From a virus (Duplodnaviria; Heunggongvirae; Uroviricota; Caudoviricetes), in IMG/VR virus record IMGVR_UViG_2537561827_000016: a DNA stretch of 31,901 nt; one strand, 5' to 3'. A program made the position numbers and the translations under genes. Position 1 is the stretch's first letter, and every line of letters starts with the position of its first letter. The notes under the pieces are model-generated. The model saw only the letters and a list, made by a program, of their open reading frames with translations, was not told the DNA's origin and searched no databases. This document shows positions 6,463 through 24,517 of this stretch, piece after piece.

Positions 6463-6663
6463 TGACTACTACTGCAGTGTTGTGGGAATGTTATAGTGTT
6501 TGTGGAATTTTTCTATGAAAAACAATGAATTAATCTGTTTTTCATATTGAGCTAATTTTTTATGGCCACAGTTGTTAAAAAGTGAGAACATAATCTTGTT
6601 CAAAACCTGCTTCTATATACGGAGGCTTTCGCTATAATACGCGGTCGGTTTTAGGAGGGGATA

Positions 6664-7608
6664 ATGCCAACAGTAGTTTCACTTTTTTCTGGATGCGGTG
6701 GTTCCGATGCGGGGGTTTTGAGAGCCGGCTTTGATGTGCTTATGGCCAACGATATCTTGCCGTATGCGCGCGATGTTTATATTGCCAATCATCCAGAAAC
6801 TGATTACATATTAGGCAATATTGCTGATGTAACTACTTTTCCTAAATCTGATTTGCTGGTAGGTTGTTATCCATGTCAGGGATTCAGCCAGGGTGGTGCG
6901 CGTAAAGCCGATCGAAAAATTAATACTCTTTATTTAGAGTTTGCTAGAGCTTTAAACAATATAAAGCCTAAAGCTTTTATAGTAGAAAACGTGTCTGGTA
7001 TGGTTAGAAAAAATTTTGAGCATTTGTTATCTGACCAGATCAGGGTTTTTACTGAAGCAGGTTATACTGTTTCCGCAAAAGTTTTAAATGCGGCTGAATA
7101 TGGAGTAGCGCAGGAAAGAAAAAGAATATTTATCGTAGGAATCCGTAATGATTTCAAAGTTAAGTACGAGTTCCCTCAGCCAACTCATGGGCCAGCAACT
7201 GGCGTCAACTATGTTACTATTAAAGATGCTATAGGGCATTTACCTGAATGGCCAGAAGGGGAATTTTATGATATGGGATTCCATTGGTATTATATGTCTC
7301 GCAATCGTCGCCAGGATTGGGATCAAATTTCAAAGACAATAGTTGCTAATGCAAGGCATATGCCGTTGCATCCTGTCAGTCCTCCGATGGAGAAAGTAAG
7401 AACTGATGAATGGAGATTTGTTGAGGATCGGAGAGCTCGCAGATTCAGTTTTCGAGAGGCAGCACTATTACAAGGGTTTGAGGATCTAGTGTTTCCAGAA
7501 ACAAATGCTGCAAGTCTTGGCATGAAATACACGGTGGTTGGTAATGCAGTGCCTCCGCCGCTTTTTGAAGCTGTAACGAAGGCATTGCCAATAGAATTAT
7601 GGGATTGA
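6664..7608 (+). CDS. DNA (cytosine-5)-methyltransferase
   Basis: Canonical C5-MTase motifs in order: FSGCGG (I, AdoMet binding), PCQGFS (IV, catalytic Cys), ENV (VI), QERKRIF (VIII), REAALLQGF (IX) and GNAVPPPLF (X). AGGAGGGG RBS upstream; TATAAT at 6633-6638. Confidence 0.9.
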   Translation: MPTVVSLFSGCGGSDAGVLRAGFDVLMANDILPYARDVYIANHPETDYILGNIADVTTFPKSDLLVGCYPCQGFSQGGARKADRKINTLYLEFARALNNIKPKAFIVENVSGMVRKNFEHLLSDQIRVFTEAGYTVSAKVLNAAEYGVAQERKRIFIVGIRNDFKVKYEFPQPTHGPATGVNYVTIKDAIGHLPEWPEGEFYDMGFHWYYMSRNRRQDWDQISKTIVANARHMPLHPVSPPMEKVRTDEWRFVEDRRARRFSFREAALLQGFEDLVFPETNAASLGMKYTVVGNAVPPPLFEAVTKALPIELWD

Positions 7609-7615
7609 TAAGCTA

Positions 7616-8605
7616 TTAAGGCTCTGGATTTAATGTATAAAGCTCTTCCTCAAATTCGCGAAACCAATCAGAGGTAGTTATCGCTTCCCATTGGTTTGCC
7701 TTATCAAGTAGATATATGATTCTCAACCTATCTAATAATAATACCCCAGCGGTTGCGTGTGTGCTTACCCATTCGCCATTTGCTTCCCGATAGAAAACAG
7801 GCGTGAACATTGTTGATGGATGCTGGAACGCAATTTGGAAATAGGTGGTCAGTTTTAACACGTTAGCCTCTAATGTTTTGCTTGGCCACCCTGTTTCTTG
7901 TGCACCACATTGACCAAGAATTCCATAGTTGCTAGTTTGACCATCAGGAAATTCCACTGTAGCAATTAGGTCAAACCCGGCATCACCAGATGTGGGAGCT
8001 CTATTTATTTCCCTTGTGTTTAAACTACAAACTCCAAGATCTTTTCCTAAAGTTTGTAGAGCTGTCCGAAGATTTGTTCCATAATAATTTTGCCTATCAT
8101 CGGAGTTAGCATCAAAAATTCTTACGGTGCCATGTGCAGGTAAGAGAGAAATCATTGCTACTTTACATACTCTGGCAAAGCTCTTTGCCCAACGTTGTGC
8201 TGCTCCTTTAATCGACTTAAAGGATCTAAGTCTAGAGCAGCAAAGAAGAAAAACATATATTCGTTGTTGTTGGTTTAGATTTTCTTTAATAATTATCTCA
8301 TCACCTGAAATTATAAATGGATATATTTTTCCAAGAGCACTTTCTCTATATTCGAGTTGTGTCCAAACATCTTCGAGTTGCTCTTCAAAACGATCATTTC
8401 TCTCAGCGTCTCCATTAATTTCTTCTTCAGAATTACATTCTTCATCAATTTCTTCAACGCTTGTTATGCCGAATTTTCTTACTGAATCTAAATCATTTTT
8501 ATGTAGTGAGTTACGTCCGGTATAATTAATTACCGTGAGTAACTCGGCTAAATCTGCAAACAAATGAGGAGAGTTGGGATGCATAACTCCTACTTCAAAA
8601 GTCAT
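7616..8605 (-). CDS. Hypothetical protein; candidate effector (possible restriction endonuclease) convergent with the MTase
   Basis: About 329-aa ORF ending 7 bp from the MTase stop, tail-to-tail; overlaps the upstream ParB-like gene by about 11 nt. Acidic cluster EEIDEECNSEEEINGDAERNDRFEEQLED. No family recognised by eye. Start chosen at ATG 8605 after the GAGG RBS; 8608 is an alternative. Confidence 0.6.
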   Translation of the reverse strand: MTFEVGVMHPNSPHLFADLAELLTVINYTGRNSLHKNDLDSVRKFGITSVEEIDEECNSEEEINGDAERNDRFEEQLEDVWTQLEYRESALGKIYPFIISGDEIIIKENLNQQQRIYVFLLCCSRLRSFKSIKGAAQRWAKSFARVCKVAMISLLPAHGTVRIFDANSDDRQNYYGTNLRTALQTLGKDLGVCSLNTREINRAPTSGDAGFDLIATVEFPDGQTSNYGILGQCGAQETGWPSKTLEANVLKLTTYFQIAFQHPSTMFTPVFYREANGEWVSTHATAGVLLLDRLRIIYLLDKANQWEAITTSDWFREFEEELYTLNPEP

Positions 8606-9716
8606 CATCACCTCTGCTATTTTTCTCTGCTATTTCAGAACCTATAAGCTTAATATGTTTATTGATTCTTCGTGCTACTTCATGGGCCTGTCTATCATAC
8701 TCTACCGTGGCAACCATGCCTGCTGCATCTATCAAAGCTGCTTCAACTTGATAAAGTAACTGGAGAAAGTCCTTAGTAATATCAGATGTCAATTGATAGG
8801 CAACTGCGAGTGGAGCCCCCATTCGGAATTGCTCCAATGCCTTAGGGCTACTTACAACAGCAGCTAGTTCTCTTAAATTACGTGATTCTCCTACACGAGT
8901 TTTTTTATCCTCGCCTTTTTTATATAACCATTCAGTTAGTTCTTTTATTTCTTTGTTCTTTAAACTCTTAGAATTGATGATAGGATGACTTGGTATTGTG
9001 TCTCCATCGTCTTCGATTGAAACTCCGACAAACTGGCCTAACCGCTCATCAGCAAGTGCTGTTGATAATACTGAAAATTTAATCGTTTCTTCATCTAGCT
9101 TTTCAATACCATAAAAATCATTTTTTTTAATGATTTCATACACCGCTAAAGCGTCTAGGTTACGCTTGATATGATCCCTACGACTGCCAATAGCTCTGGC
9201 AACCTCATAGTAGCGTAGCATTGGATCCAGATTTGCATTGGTATAATCAAAAAGCTGTTTAATATATCGAGCTTTTGATAAGGGTTCCCATTGTTTGACA
9301 CCAGTAATATGTCTGAAACCAAGGTACGGAAGAATCTCTTCTCTTGTTTGGCGCTCAATGACAGGAACACGATCGACCGTATGTTTTGCATTTGATGCAA
9401 TTTCTCGTAGTCGAGCACTTGGATTTTCACATAGTGTCGGATCGCGGAATAATTTGACCGCGGATAGGCGACGGTTTCCTTCAACTACAATGTACTTCCC
9501 CGGCGCTCCACTATCAGGAATGACAATCAATGGTTCTCCAGGGAAAAAACCATTTTCCGCAATAGCACTCATTAAGTCTTCGATAGATGTTGAGGTTGCT
9601 ATGTAGTTAATCATTCCCAATTGGTCACGAGACACGCCTTCAGGAAGTCTTGGGTTTTCTGTGTCAAGTTCCAAATCATCTAGCGGAACATAAAGTATTT
9701 CTGAATCAGCAATCAT
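8595..9716 (-). CDS. ParB/Srx-like nuclease-domain protein
   Basis: N-terminal region ILYVPLDDLELDTENPRLP ... PLIVIPDSGAPGKYIVVEGNRRLSAVKL resembles the ParB N-terminal fold (PNPxQPR-like box followed by a GxRRxxA box). C-terminal roughly 230 aa unassigned. First ATG at 9716 with GGAG RBS; the ORF track's TTG start at 9755 is not preferred. Confidence 0.7.
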   Translation of the reverse strand: MIADSEILYVPLDDLELDTENPRLPEGVSRDQLGMINYIATSTSIEDLMSAIAENGFFPGEPLIVIPDSGAPGKYIVVEGNRRLSAVKLFRDPTLCENPSARLREIASNAKHTVDRVPVIERQTREEILPYLGFRHITGVKQWEPLSKARYIKQLFDYTNANLDPMLRYYEVARAIGSRRDHIKRNLDALAVYEIIKKNDFYGIEKLDEETIKFSVLSTALADERLGQFVGVSIEDDGDTIPSHPIINSKSLKNKEIKELTEWLYKKGEDKKTRVGESRNLRELAAVVSSPKALEQFRMGAPLAVAYQLTSDITKDFLQLLYQVEAALIDAAGMVATVEYDRQAHEVARRINKHIKLIGSEIAEKNSRGDDDF

Positions 9717-9942
9717 CTGGATCTCCGTTGAACATGTCCACGAGAAGGAGCACAAAGTTATTTCATAACATGCAATATACTCATTCTGTAGCCATAAATG
9801 AATTATTCATGATGTAAGATTCGCGTTGATGTGCGTGAATTCGCAAGTAATTATACAGCAAGGTTTGATTGGGTATCGTCAGCACCAGTGCGGTTCCAAC
9901 GTACTCATGCAACTGCATTAAAACCGCCCCATGAAGCGGGCG

Positions 9943-21276: not shown

Positions 21277-21880
21277 TTCGCGACTGCTGCCGACCGGCTC
21301 ATCACCGCTTGAAATTGCTGCCGCAAAAGCCTGTGCGGAAATTGAAAAAACGCCGGTCAGTATTCGTGAGCTGTGGAACCCGGACACCTGCCCGGCAAAT
21401 CTGCTGCCGTGGCTGGCGTGGGCCTTTTCGGTCGACAGGTGGGATGAAAAGTGGCCGGAAGCGACAAAACGCGCCGTTATCCGCGATGCCTATTTCATCC
21501 ACTGTCATAAGGGTACTGTCGGCGCAATCCGGCGTGTTGTGGAGCCGCTCGGCTATCTGATTGAAGTGAGGGAGTGGTGGCAGCTCAACGAGGAGCCGGG
21601 GACGTTCCGTATCGTTGTTGGCGTGCTTGAGCAGGGTATTACCGAAGAAATGTATCTGGAGCTGGAACGTCTCGTTGCTGATGCAAAACCGGCGAGCCGC
21701 CATCTGACGGGACTGGCTATCAGTTTAAGTACAACCGGCAACATTTTTGCCGGAACGGGATGCTATCACGGTGACGCCCTGACGGTTTATCCCTACACCC
21801 CGGAGGCCATTATTGTCGGAGGGGATTATTTCCCGGCCTCGGTCATTCATTTAATTGATAACCTGAGAGTAAACGCATGA
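21269..21880 (+). CDS. I: Baseplate protein I
   Basis: ORF overlapping J end and H start; P2 gpI position. Exact start uncertain. Confidence 0.82.
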   Translation: MSDSRLLPTGSSPLEIAAAKACAEIEKTPVSIRELWNPDTCPANLLPWLAWAFSVDRWDEKWPEATKRAVIRDAYFIHCHKGTVGAIRRVVEPLGYLIEVREWWQLNEEPGTFRIVVGVLEQGITEEMYLELERLVADAKPASRHLTGLAISLSTTGNIFAGTGCYHGDALTVYPYTPEAIIVGGDYFPASVIHLIDNLRVNA

Positions 21881-22596
21881 CAGTGAAATACTACGCCATT
21901 CTGACTAATCAGGGCGCAGCACGACTGGCTAACGCGACGATGCTCGGCAGTAAGCTGAATCTGACGCAAATGGCCGTTGGTGATGCGAATGGTGTATTAC
22001 CGACACCAGACCCGGCACAGACAAAACTGATTAACCAGAAACGCATTGCACCGCTGAATCTTCTGAGTGTTGACCCTAACAATCAGAGCCAGATTATTGC
22101 GGAGCAAATTATCCCTGAAAACGAGGGAGGATTCTGGATCCGTGAGATTGGGCTTTATGATGATGAAGGCGTACTCATTGCGGTGGCGAACTGCCCGGAA
22201 ACGTACAAACCGCAGTTGCAGGAAGGCAGTGGTCGTACCCAGACTATCCGCATGATTCTGGTTGTCTCGAATACCGAAGCCATCACGCTGAAAATCGACC
22301 CGTCGGTAGTACTGGCGACCCGTAAATATGTGGATGACAAAATCTCAGAACACGAACATTCACGACGACACCCGGATGCATCGCTGACCGCAAAAGGTTT
22401 TACTCAGTTAAGCAGCGCAACCAACAGCACGTCTGAAACACTGGCCGCAACGCCGAGAGCGGTAAAGGTCGCGTATGACTTGCTAACGGGAAATATACCG
22501 CACAGGACGCGACCACAGCGCGAAAAGGTCTTGTCCAGCTCAGTAGCGCCACCAATAGCACTTCTGAAACGCTGGCCGCAACACCGAAAGCGGTGA
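21877..22596 (+). CDS. H: Tail fibre protein H, N-terminal fragment (gene interrupted by apparent frameshift)
   Basis: N-terminal region with the conserved GFTQLSSATNSTSETLAATPRAVKVAYDL motif of P2-type tail fibres; reading frame is lost near 22480 and runs to a stop at 22596. Confidence 0.8.
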   Translation: MTVKYYAILTNQGAARLANATMLGSKLNLTQMAVGDANGVLPTPDPAQTKLINQKRIAPLNLLSVDPNNQSQIIAEQIIPENEGGFWIREIGLYDDEGVLIAVANCPETYKPQLQEGSGRTQTIRMILVVSNTEAITLKIDPSVVLATRKYVDDKISEHEHSRRHPDASLTAKGFTQLSSATNSTSETLAATPRAVKVAYDLLTGNIPHRTRPQREKVLSSSVAPPIALLKRWPQHRKR

Positions 22597-23777
22597 AGTC
22601 TGCCTATGACAATGCTGAAAAACGTCTTCAGAAAGATCAGAACGGCGCGGATATTCCTGATAAAAGATTATTCCTGCGCAATATTGGAGCAACAAATTCA
22701 ACAACCATGTCTTTTAGTGGTGGTACAGGATGGTTCAGGCTGGCAACTGTAACCATGCCACAGGCCAGTTCCGTGGTTTACATAAGTCTGATTGGTGGTT
22801 CTGGATATAATGTTAACTCCCCTATGCAGGCTGGTATATCTGAACTTGTTCTTCGTGCGGGAAATGGGAATCCAAAAGGTCTTACTGGTGCGTTATGGCG
22901 ACGGACATCGGTTGGATTTACTAATTTTGCATGGGTGAATACATCCGGTGATACCTATGATGTTTATGTTGAAATAGGTAATTACACCACACGTGTTAAT
23001 ATTCAGTGGGATTATACCAGTAACGCCAGCGTAACGATTCATACATCACCATCTTATACAGCGAATAAACCAACAGGCCTGACAGATGGAACTGTATATG
23101 TAATTTACAGTTCACATATTAAACCTACTGCTGCTGACCTTGGCTTGAGCGATGCAAGTGGATACGTGGGACGCTTGGTGAATACCCGGGTTTTCACGTC
23201 ATCAGGTACGTACACCCCGACGCCAGGAACAAAACGGATTAGGGTCACAATAACGGGCGGCGGTGGCGGAGGGGGCGGCTGCAAGGCTATATCCAATAAT
23301 GAAACGTTTTTCGGTGCTGGCGGTGGGGCCGGTGGAACAATAATTTCAATAATGACCCCGATACAGAATAGTTATCCAGTCACTATCGGCGCAGGTGGGG
23401 CCGGTGGTGTTAGTGCGACGAACGGCACCAGTGGCGGGAATAGCGTATTCGCATCGTTAATTGCTCCTGGTGGCGCAGGTGGCGGGAAAGTGGGAATTAC
23501 AAACACAAACGGCGGTAACGGAGGTGTGCCGAGTACTGGCGATATCCGCATCACTGGTGGAAATGGAGGCGACGGTCAGTCCGGAAATATCAGCGTCAGT
23601 GGTGAAGGCGGAACATCGTACTGGGGTGGCGGTGGACGCGCAGGCGCTGGCGGTGGCGTTAGCGGTAAGGCATATGGTTCAGGCGGAGGTGGTGCATACG
23701 ATGCCGGTTATAGCGGAACCAGTATGACAGGCGGGAAAGGTGCCGCTGGGATTTGTATTATCGAGGAGTTTGCATAA
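22593..23777 (+). CDS. H: Tail fibre protein H, C-terminal fragment with Gly-rich distal domain
   Basis: Coordinates follow the ORF track (GTG at 22593). The same frame is open from 22479 and encodes LANGKYTAQDATTARKGLVQLSSATNSTSETLAATPKAVKSAYD, continuing the H motif. C-terminus is glycine-rich, including an eight-glycine run. Confidence 0.75.
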   Translation: MKSAYDNAEKRLQKDQNGADIPDKRLFLRNIGATNSTTMSFSGGTGWFRLATVTMPQASSVVYISLIGGSGYNVNSPMQAGISELVLRAGNGNPKGLTGALWRRTSVGFTNFAWVNTSGDTYDVYVEIGNYTTRVNIQWDYTSNASVTIHTSPSYTANKPTGLTDGTVYVIYSSHIKPTAADLGLSDASGYVGRLVNTRVFTSSGTYTPTPGTKRIRVTITGGGGGGGGCKAISNNETFFGAGGGAGGTIISIMTPIQNSYPVTIGAGGAGGVSATNGTSGGNSVFASLIAPGGAGGGKVGITNTNGGNGGVPSTGDIRITGGNGGDGQSGNISVSGEGGTSYWGGGGRAGAGGGVSGKAYGSGGGGAYDAGYSGTSMTGGKGAAGICIIEEFA

Positions 23778-24187
23778 TGAATGCGTCATATGCAGTTATT
23801 GAAAATGGGATGGTTGTGAATGTCATTGTCTGGGATGGCGAGGCTGAATTCACAGTGCCGGATAATCAGCAGCTCATTGATATTTCTGATATCAGTGAGC
23901 ATCCCGGAATCGGCTGGGGGTATTCAGACGGGGTATTTACTGCGCCGCTCCCTCCGGAACGTTCTCATGATGAACTGGTAGCTGACGCTGAACAGAAAAA
24001 ACAGTCGCTGATAGACGCAGCAATGGCCAATATCAGCGTGATTCAGTTAAAGCTGCAGGCCGGGCGCAAACTGACGCAAGAAGAAACTACCCGACTTAAC
24101 GTTGTGCTGGATTATATCGACGCTGTGACGGCAACAGATACCAGCACCGCACCGGATGTCATCTGGCCTGAACTGCAGGAGGCGTAG
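23777..24187 (+). CDS. G: Tail fibre assembly chaperone (G/Tfa-like)
   Basis: 136 aa from ATG 23777, overlapping the H stop (TAATG). The acidic C-terminus ending in PDVIWPELQEA is of the kind seen at Tfa chaperone C-termini; N-terminus diverged. Confidence 0.7.
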   Translation: MNASYAVIENGMVVNVIVWDGEAEFTVPDNQQLIDISDISEHPGIGWGYSDGVFTAPLPPERSHDELVADAEQKKQSLIDAAMANISVIQLKLQAGRKLTQEETTRLNVVLDYIDAVTATDTSTAPDVIWPELQEA

Positions 24188-24393
24188 GCCATTCAATATC
24201 TGACGTACCGGAAGTATCGGACCGCTCCGGTGCGTACAGGTAATCCAGCCACAAATTATATTGCGCCAGTACCTCAGACCTGCCGGGCTATTGCTTACTG
24301 TTCATGTATTTATTGGCCTGATTAATCAGTAGCTGTCTTTCTGGTCGTGTGGATCCTGCAAATCCTGAATGGTCGGAAATACCGCAATAAATA

Positions 24394-24421
24394 CAGGCGG
24401 GCTGATTGCCCGCCTTTTTTA
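24394..24421 (+). terminator. Rho-independent terminator after G
   Basis: Hairpin GGCGGG-ctgattg-CCCGCC followed by TTTTTTAT. Confidence 0.6.
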
Positions 24422-24517
24422 TCTGTTGTTTCATCCCCTGACCAGCCAGGTCAAATAGCATCTCATGCCCTGCACAACTGAAAATACCACTCACCCATTA
24501 ACCACGGAGTTAAACGG

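Follow-up and report, generated by a model that had tools for sequence, protein, structure and literature searches.

A glycine-rich tail-fibre tip and its chaperone gene, very probably acquired as one block by a P2-like prophage

The tail fibre H of a P2-like (Peduovirus) prophage ends in a TNF-like/glycine-rich (TG) domain that is unrelated to the tip of the P2 fibre, and the gene directly downstream, G, encodes a tail-fibre assembly chaperone. We consider it very probable that G is the dedicated chaperone of this tip and that both entered a P2-type genome as one recombined block. This reading draws on the identity of the domain, on the similarity of both folds to the partners of a solved complex, on the sharing of the block with other phage types, on the co-occurrence of the tip with the N-terminal domain of the chaperone, and on gene remnants that lie downstream. 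A receptor specificity and a host range other than those of P2 would plausibly go with such a tip.

All positions refer to the window, the whole stretch of 31,901 nt that was analysed (Table 1). Its gene order and genome backbone are those of P2. Yersinia phage HQ103 matches it at 97.7% identity over ~88% of the first 25 kb, and other P2 relatives reach 73-77%. The closest relatives are found on two E. coli chromosomes, NZ_LR883000 (L001; about 99-99.5% identity in the aligned blocks) and NZ_CP025849 (L002).

Table 1. Features of the H-G region and its right flank, in window coordinates
Feature	Position	Strand	Content or basis
Gene H, 5' part	21877..22596	+	Collar domain and first 44-aa fibre repeat
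Two PF03406 fibre-repeat copies	22392..22610	+	Repeat search
Private 1-nt deletion in H	22478..22479	+	Alignment to L001 and L002
Distal H reading frame, stop to stop	22479..23777	+	Mu S/P1 S-like linker, middle domain, glycine-rich tip
Middle domain of H, without Pfam match	22695..23136	+	96% DNA identity to plasmid L003
TG tip (Pfam Gly_rich_2) at the C-terminus of H, predicted receptor-binding domain	23137..23777	+	
Gly8 run, first glycine-rich motif	23257..23280	+	Mixed GGN codons
Gene G, 136-aa tail-fibre assembly chaperone	23777..24187	+	PF02413, AlphaFold2 model, PDB fold match
Tfa', remaining 3' end of a tail-fibre assembly gene in the opposite orientation	24159..24287	-	29-nt overlap with the end of G
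Remaining 3' end of a P2-type gene G (...VDPANPEWSEIPQ, stop)	24339..24390	+	89% identity to P2 gene G over its final 56 nt
Terminator-like hairpin (24395-24415) and T-run	24395..24423	+	Ends the operon ahead of sheath gene FI (start 24518)

The glycine-rich tip of H

The first-pass annotation, made from the letters alone, had described the C-terminal third of H as glycine-rich and unlike the end of P2 H, and the analysis upholds it on both counts. Glycine accounts for 67 of the final 212 residues of the H frame ending at 23777, and the motifs quoted at the time (GGGGGGGG, GAGGGAGG, GGAGGGK and GGNGGDG) are all present. Within the 394-aa H fragment, residues 203-391 match the Pfam family Gly_rich_2 (PF21722) far beyond chance (50.1 bits, cut-off 24.3; E 4.9e-13); the match spans profile positions 2-224 of 226 and ends three residues ahead of the H stop. 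Since H has 633 aa once its reading frame is repaired (see below), the glycine-rich domain makes up the last third of the protein. A terminal position is characteristic of this domain: in 129 out of 134 diverse full-length relatives, no more than five residues separate its end from the C-terminus, and the proteins of which it forms the terminal module range from about 220 to 1,400 aa in length. An exhaustive HMMER search yielded 7,850 representative proteins with the domain at E <= 0.001, and 1,155 at E <= 1e-10.

The standard P2 tip was considered as an identity for this domain and rejected by direct BLASTP of the H fragment against P2 gpH, which returned nothing significant (best E 0.69). 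Residues 27-206 of gpH are 64% identical to the N-terminal ~200 residues of H, and nothing aligned past residue 206. P2 uses its fibre to bind LPS, and a swap of the distal part can alter the specificity of the fibre (PMC9594776).

Along the tip, glycine-rich motifs and other segments alternate (RIRVTIT / GGGGGGGG / CKAISNNETFF / GAGGGAGG / TIISIMTP, and so on); among relatives, the glycine runs are kept and the segments in between are variable. The AlphaFold2 model of the tip (75 diverse sequences; pLDDT 95.0, pTM 0.89) has strands interleaved with stacked glycine-rich motifs, resembles gp24 of phage Pam3, and matches phage fibre tips; the structural argument as a whole is built on monomer AlphaFold models. 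For a TG tip with its chaperone, a Pfam family exists and the structure was solved in 2022 (PDB 7ypx, 7yfw; PMC9608196). In Pam3 gp24, the domain forms a TNF-like beta-sandwich with strands that run on into six loops; its central motifs read -GGGGxGG-, and its variable distal tip has been proposed to bind the receptor (PMC9608196). We take the last third of H to be a TG tip of this kind, with beta strands that alternate with glycine-rich motifs packed in a lattice; by analogy, it would bind the receptor through an end made up of the variable stretches between the motifs.

The two fibres differ in several respects. Pam3 gp24 is a minimal fibre of 280 aa with an N-terminal alpha-helical shaft, whereas the much longer H joins its tip to a P2 collar domain (PF12571), PF03406 repeats and a middle domain. 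Their sequence similarity is marginal (phmmer E 0.14), and the host of H is an enterobacterium whereas Pam3 is a cyanophage. An enterobacterial phage fibre with a TNF-like plus glycine-rich tip like that of H is TFP_Y of Klebsiella phage SCNJ1-Y, although phage and protein are different and the comparison is an analogy only. In this Pam3-like fibre, host-adaptation mutations were found in the glycine-rich domain, and the same study, in which LPS is reportedly the receptor, tested whether LPS triggers DNA ejection via TFP_Y (PMC12671077). The gp38 adhesin of the T2/S16 type (PDB 6F45) combines a glycine-rich motif lattice with variable receptor-binding loops, as the TG tip does, and resembles Pam3 gp24 (PMC9608196). 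However, gp38 is a separate adhesin on the tip of gp37, whereas the H tip is fused in-frame to the fibre, and 6F45 was not among the top structural matches of the H tip model. Mycobacteriophage Bxb1 gp33/gp29 (siphovirus tail-tip decorations) and the glycine-rich domain of ALK/LTK (animal receptor kinases) also rank among the nearest known systems and belong to contexts unrelated to that of H.

A different function is implied by the name that NCBI gives to a 308-aa homologue of the tip, 'carbohydrate kinase', which is carried by dozens of proteins that are 88-98% identical. Taken at its word, it would make the glycine-rich protein an enzyme and not a receptor-binding tip. We regard this as wholly improbable: the proteins so named carry PF21722 alone, there are zero kinase-family matches in Pfam and NCBIfam, the 308-aa proteins occupy a tail-fibre slot, after a Mu Gp48-like baseplate gene and before a Caudo_TAP gene, and the fold is that of phage fibre tips. 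The NCBIfam search as such returned zero matches for H and zero for G. The 308-aa homologues are thus a database problem, mis-named in the public record, and the domain of H is best read as a fibre tip.

What, then, of the eight consecutive GGN codons at the start of the glycine-rich motifs? The first-pass annotation had seen in them a long poly-G tract and a potential site of slippage, and they could be imagined as a contingency locus, in which slippage toggles the fibre or alters its specificity; rare close homologues do have 5, 6, 3 or 1 Gly at this position. The poly-G tract, however, dissolves on inspection. The codons are mixed (GGC GGC GGT GGC GGA GGG GGC GGC), the longest G homopolymer measures 5 nt, and the TRF score of the run is weak (34, with 80% matches). 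Of 120 close homologues (at least 88% identity), 114 have a run of the same length, eight Gly, and slippage by whole units would stay in-frame. Across 75 diverse relatives the run comprises 1 to 8 Gly, a range that reflects evolutionary and not phase variation. The run is the conserved central glycine motif of the fold (-GGGGxGG-, PMC9608196), and its use as a switch appears highly unlikely.

The chaperone G and its pairing with the tip

The start codon of G overlaps the H stop as TAATG and is preceded by a GAGGAG Shine-Dalgarno sequence 9 nt upstream. G had been described as shorter than its P2 counterpart, with a distinct N-terminus and a Tfa-like C-terminus, and this description proved accurate. 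The protein has 136 aa against the 175 aa of P2 gpG, to which it is 26% identical (pairwise E 0.001); the N-domains of the two differ. Both belong to the same Pfam family, Caudo_TAP (PF02413), which covers G residues 32-133 at 73.8 bits (cut-off 22.1), and G also matches PHROG 188, 3792 and 105. In L001 and L002, the PGAP label of the gene reads 'partial, missing N-terminus'. Since full-length homologues of 134-138 aa are common, this label is an annotation artefact, and the treatment of a G-type chaperone as a truncated pseudogene is a further database problem.

In the AlphaFold2 model of G (pLDDT 92.1), five strands in residues 3-55 are followed by a proline-rich linker and by helices in residues 64-119. 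The sole significant PDB match of this model was chain a of 7ypx, the Pam3 chaperone gp25 (Foldseek, E 1.4e-4). In gp25, a beta-sandwich (residues 1-55) is connected by an 8-residue linker to a helical trimerisation domain (residues 64-162; PMC9608196), and these domain boundaries (1-55, from 64) match those of G. The global TM-score between the two is low, at 0.36, which we attribute to a different inter-domain orientation. A phmmer search of G against PDB sequences gave noise only (RAD52, E 0.17); the kinship with gp25 is seen at the fold level only. Taken together, the fold matches of the H tip and of G point to both partners of one solved fibre-chaperone complex. The arrangement of the genes agrees as well: in Pam3 and in the window alike, the chaperone gene lies directly downstream of the fibre gene and encodes an N-terminal beta domain joined by a linker to a C-terminal helical domain. 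The S/U pairs of Mu and of P1/P7 share with G the modular Tfa layout of a binding N-domain and a trimerising C-domain (PMC9608196). Mu and P1 have, however, an invertible segment, which the window is without, tips that are not glycine-rich, and other Tfa N-domains.

By analogy with gp24-gp25, the small N-terminal beta domain of G would clasp the TG domain of each nascent H subunit, while the C-terminal helices of G would trimerise and gather three H chains. The three N-domains would hold the TG domains until the H trimer forms, whereupon G would be released from the mature fibre. A 3:3 complex with the N-domain seated on the TG domain is a feature of Pam3; for H and G, a corresponding contact is suggested by co-occurrence. 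An open reading frame encoding the G N-domain follows directly downstream in 61 of the 73 IMG/VR loci whose TG domain is full, and the TAATG overlap usually recurs there; in the remaining 12 no such downstream frame was detectable, and several of these loci are cut by contig ends. Among 24 complete P2-like loci spanning I to FI, an HMM of the N-domain found it in both tip-bearing loci (2/2) and in none of the others (0/22). The pairing holds at tip identities of 31-43% and for C-domains without detectable similarity to that of G, some of which score below the Caudo_TAP cut-off. A protein search seeded with a distant chaperone found only 7 proteins.

It is possible that the unit of exchange is smaller than the two genes and consists of the TG domain together with only the ~55-residue N-domain of the chaperone (motif YA-I-NG-V-N-I-WDG), which would serve as a clasp for TG tips while the C-domain is swapped independently. 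The N-domain would then follow TG tips across P2-, SfV/Mu-tail- and P1/P7-type phages and jumbo phages, and recombination breakpoints would fall inside the chaperone gene itself. Such a reading fits the retention of the N-domain at low tip identity next to dissimilar or sub-cut-off C-domains, and it fits the right end of the block shared with SfV-type prophages, which lies 30 nt before the G stop. We nevertheless hold it only tentatively, at a little below an even chance.

Spread of the block and remnants at its right edge

The tip and nearly all of G (23137-24157) are 93% identical at the DNA level to prophages with an SfV/Mu-type tail. In these prophages, the gene for the 308-aa fibre stands between a Gp48-like baseplate gene upstream and a Caudo_TAP gene of 138 aa downstream. 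Over its first 103 residues, this fibre matches SfV orf21 as well as the fibres of SfI, SfII and SfIV, whose own tips differ. On a P1/P7-type plasmid of ~90 kb (L003; the backbone sit-R-16-bplA-S is that of P1/P7, at 95% identity), DNA identity amounts to 96% over 22695-23131 and 91% over 23120-24243, and the block fills the Sv-U position, beside an invertase/recombinase fragment. Jumbo phage Goslar has a version of the tip and chaperone that is ~70% identical at the protein level. Among 5,426 complete E. coli genomes, 262 have the tip with the N-terminal half of G (23160-23960), at 301 sites on chromosomes and 77 on plasmids, and the tip is present in 2 of 58 P2-like IMG/VR loci.

The middle domain of H has a distribution of its own. 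It was found in 11 of the 58 P2-like IMG/VR loci, 10 of which are without the glycine-rich tip, and in Yersinia phages vB_YpM_5/6 (92% DNA identity); it can be exchanged apart from the tip. The H linker NAEKRLQKDQNGADIPDK (fragment residues 2-37) matches the tail fibre protein S of Mu (PDB 8ju3 and 5yvq).

DNA similarity to P2 stops at 22598-22616 and resumes at 24339-24390, with the 3' remnant of a P2-type gene G, which marks the right edge of the replacement. Between G and this remnant lies the end of a second chaperone gene in the opposite orientation, Tfa', whose last ~42 codons match Caudo_TAP at 27.0 bits (cut-off 22.1; profile positions 100-131 of 131). This remnant is also annotated by PGAP in both L001 and L002, and an inverted-repeat search marks the site as well. 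The 3' remnants of two displaced chaperone genes support acquisition by recombination. The gene fun(Z), which follows G in P2, is absent from the window, and P2 has a putative terminator at the place equivalent to the hairpin that closes the operon here.

A convergent, inverted chaperone remnant adjoining G calls to mind the invertible host-range switches of the Mu G or P1 C type, the more so as the same cassette occupies the C-segment position of the P1/P7-type plasmid, beside the recombinase fragment. That the region forms part of a live switch of this kind is very unlikely, however: Tfa' is down to about 42 codons, and the stretch between H and FI holds no alternative tip and no recombinase frame, nor are there long flanking inverted repeats. 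Replacement by recombination, by contrast, would account for these remnants as follows: the block of tip and chaperone took the place of a P2-type H tip and a P2-type G, with a left junction at the conserved fibre linkers and a right junction inside or after the chaperone gene. The proposal in the first-pass annotation of a swapped tip with its cognate chaperone is therefore supported from several sides, namely a tip unrelated to that of P2, a block shared at ~91-93% identity, the co-occurrence of the N-domain and the chaperone remnants downstream.

The split reading frame of H and the standing of the module

H is interrupted in the window, and the term 'C-terminal fragment', used for its distal part from the start, is correct. 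The private one-base deletion itself had been missed in the first reading. It follows position 22478 (TATGA-CTTGC in the window, TATGA[T/C]CTTGC in the relatives) and is the sole true indel over the 7.6 kb aligned with L001. Past this position, the 5' part of H is out of frame until a premature stop, so that the gene is divided into two frames of 239 and 394 aa; insertion of one base restores a single open reading frame of 633 aa. PHROG 6202 (tail fibre, 636 positions) spans both halves, and intact copies of the same fibre are found in RefSeq (WP_000216969.1 and WP_001518691.1) and in PHROG 6202. In the Pfam search, PF12571 covers H residues 1-150 (E 1.8e-63) and PF03406 residues 169-203. Relatives have 3 or 4 copies of the fibre repeat, L002 one more than the window and L001 two more; the two copies in the window are spaced at 131 rather than 132 nt because of the deletion.

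The deleted version had 0 exact matches in IMG/VR, where the intact version is present in 58 contigs, and 0 exact matches in the GTDB representative genomes. In a megablast search, 611 complete E. coli genomes held the stretch, none of them at 99% identity or above to the 111-nt query, and each of the best 8 matches listed spans 112 nt against the 111 nt of the query. Programmed frameshifting at the break was considered and rejected: the site is without a slippery heptamer, and in the target (-1) frame a TGA stands directly 5' of the sole possible shift point.

With the tip and the baseplate-binding part of H in different frames, the module is inactive in this copy unless the deletion is a sequencing error; judged from the sequence as written, and barring such an error, H would be unable to yield a complete fibre. 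The frameshift raises the possibility that the module is a decaying remnant, with the deletion real, no complete fibre made, and the tip and chaperone genes carried as decaying cargo of a defective prophage. The division of H into two frames, the missing means of restoring the frame and the privacy of the deletion in IMG/VR, the GTDB representatives and E. coli genomes all speak for it. Yet the deletion is the lone true indel in 7.6 kb against a relative that is 99.5% identical, a single-base assembly error is possible, and the distal H frame and G are otherwise intact and obviously conserved. We put decay just short of an equal chance, the choice between a fibre-defective prophage and an assembly error at the deletion being nearly balanced. 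The question bears on the activity of the copy in the window and not on the identity of the module as a TG tip with its chaperone.

Finally, we would like to place the module among known cases of fibre exchange. That P2, Mu, P1 and lambdoid phages exchange fibre tips together with their assembly genes in mosaic fashion is textbook material, and was reportedly set out by Haggard-Ljungquist et al. in 1992. A swap of tip and chaperone of this kind is ordinary and already known, and the general understanding of fibre biology is unchanged by the module. In the open-access literature, we found no description of a TG tip in P2-like phages and no mention of PF21722. The module would offer a clear, datable example of the retargeting of a temperate E. 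coli phage with the scars still visible, and of a tip that travels in one block with its matching chaperone between tail machines that are unrelated (P2, SfV, P1/P7). Provided that the receptor is found, the tip-chaperone pair of ~1 kb could serve to retarget P2-based particles or tailocins, for which natural fusion points lie at 22600-22700 and at 23137. The linker NAEKRLQKDQNGADIP of H is a candidate fusion point besides the one at 23137.

Modular architecture of the tail fibre

The middle domain of the tail-fibre protein H matches no Pfam family; nevertheless, it is common to fibres of very different phages at 40-88% protein identity, among them Yersinia vB_YpM_5, ST64B Sb24, SJ46-like phage-plasmids and, as distal long tail fibres, T4-like phages. 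In the P1/P7-type plasmid L003, about 1 kb is present between this domain and the glycine-rich TG tip that the window does not have, and PGAP flags the L003 fibre gene as incomplete. Upstream, the 132-nt PF03406 fibre repeat occurs in two copies in the window, three in L002 (E. coli NZ_CP025849) and four in L001 (E. coli NZ_LR883000), so that the H shaft differs in length by whole repeat units among near-identical prophages.

The tip and its chaperone are also found together in a jumbo phage (IMGVR_UViG_2974650247_000001; 237,307 bp). Here, a 1,326-aa fibre ORF ends in a C-terminal TG tip with 72% identity to that of the window, and after it comes a 138-aa chaperone in which the two domains of G are present. 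In protein searches of the phage-record collection, Goslar was the sole phage with a matching tip.

Database labels of the chaperone and a related fibre

PGAP labels the G-type chaperone a pseudogene 'missing N-terminus', placing its start ~60 nt inside the real ORF. Since the full 136-aa ORF, including its own N-domain, is conserved and widespread, this call is an artefact of an underlying model built on other Tfa N-domains. A second label concerns the 308-aa fibre of SfV-backbone prophages that carries the window's tip, which dozens of NCBI records name 'carbohydrate kinase'. As Gly_rich_2 is its sole domain and it occupies the tail-fibre slot, the name is a propagated misannotation.

Features of the fibre region, its relatives and the low-GC island
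Feature	Sequence	Coordinates	Strand	Match or protein
PF03406 repeats of H	window	22392-22610
H middle domain	window	22695-23136
Extra segment in fibre	L003	6437-7437
PGAP chaperone pseudogene	L001	4425-4775
PGAP chaperone pseudogene	L002	4571-4921
PGAP chaperone pseudogene	L003	8154-8504
308-aa SfV-backbone fibre	L005-L008	8001-8927		P0003-P0120
Low-GC island	window	6500-9800
C-5 cytosine DNA methylase	window	6664-7608	+	PF00145, E 5.5e-65
Unassigned 331-aa ORF	window	7616-8611	-
386-aa ORF	window	8595-9755	-	PADLOC PD-Lambda-5_A, E 4.9e-28
G-to-FI interval	window	24188-24517
68-aa ORF	window	24288-24494	-

Probable cargo island and the G-to-FI interval

At the site corresponding to the P2 tin/old hotspot, the window contains an island with a GC content of 0.34-0.44, which encodes the methylase and the two minus-strand ORFs listed in the table and is probably anti-phage defence cargo borne by the prophage. 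Between G and the sheath gene FI, where P2 harbours the fun(Z) moron, the window prophage lacks fun(Z), and the interval holds only two chaperone-gene remnants and a terminator. The 68-aa ORF there runs across the hairpin of this terminator and is unlikely to be a real gene.
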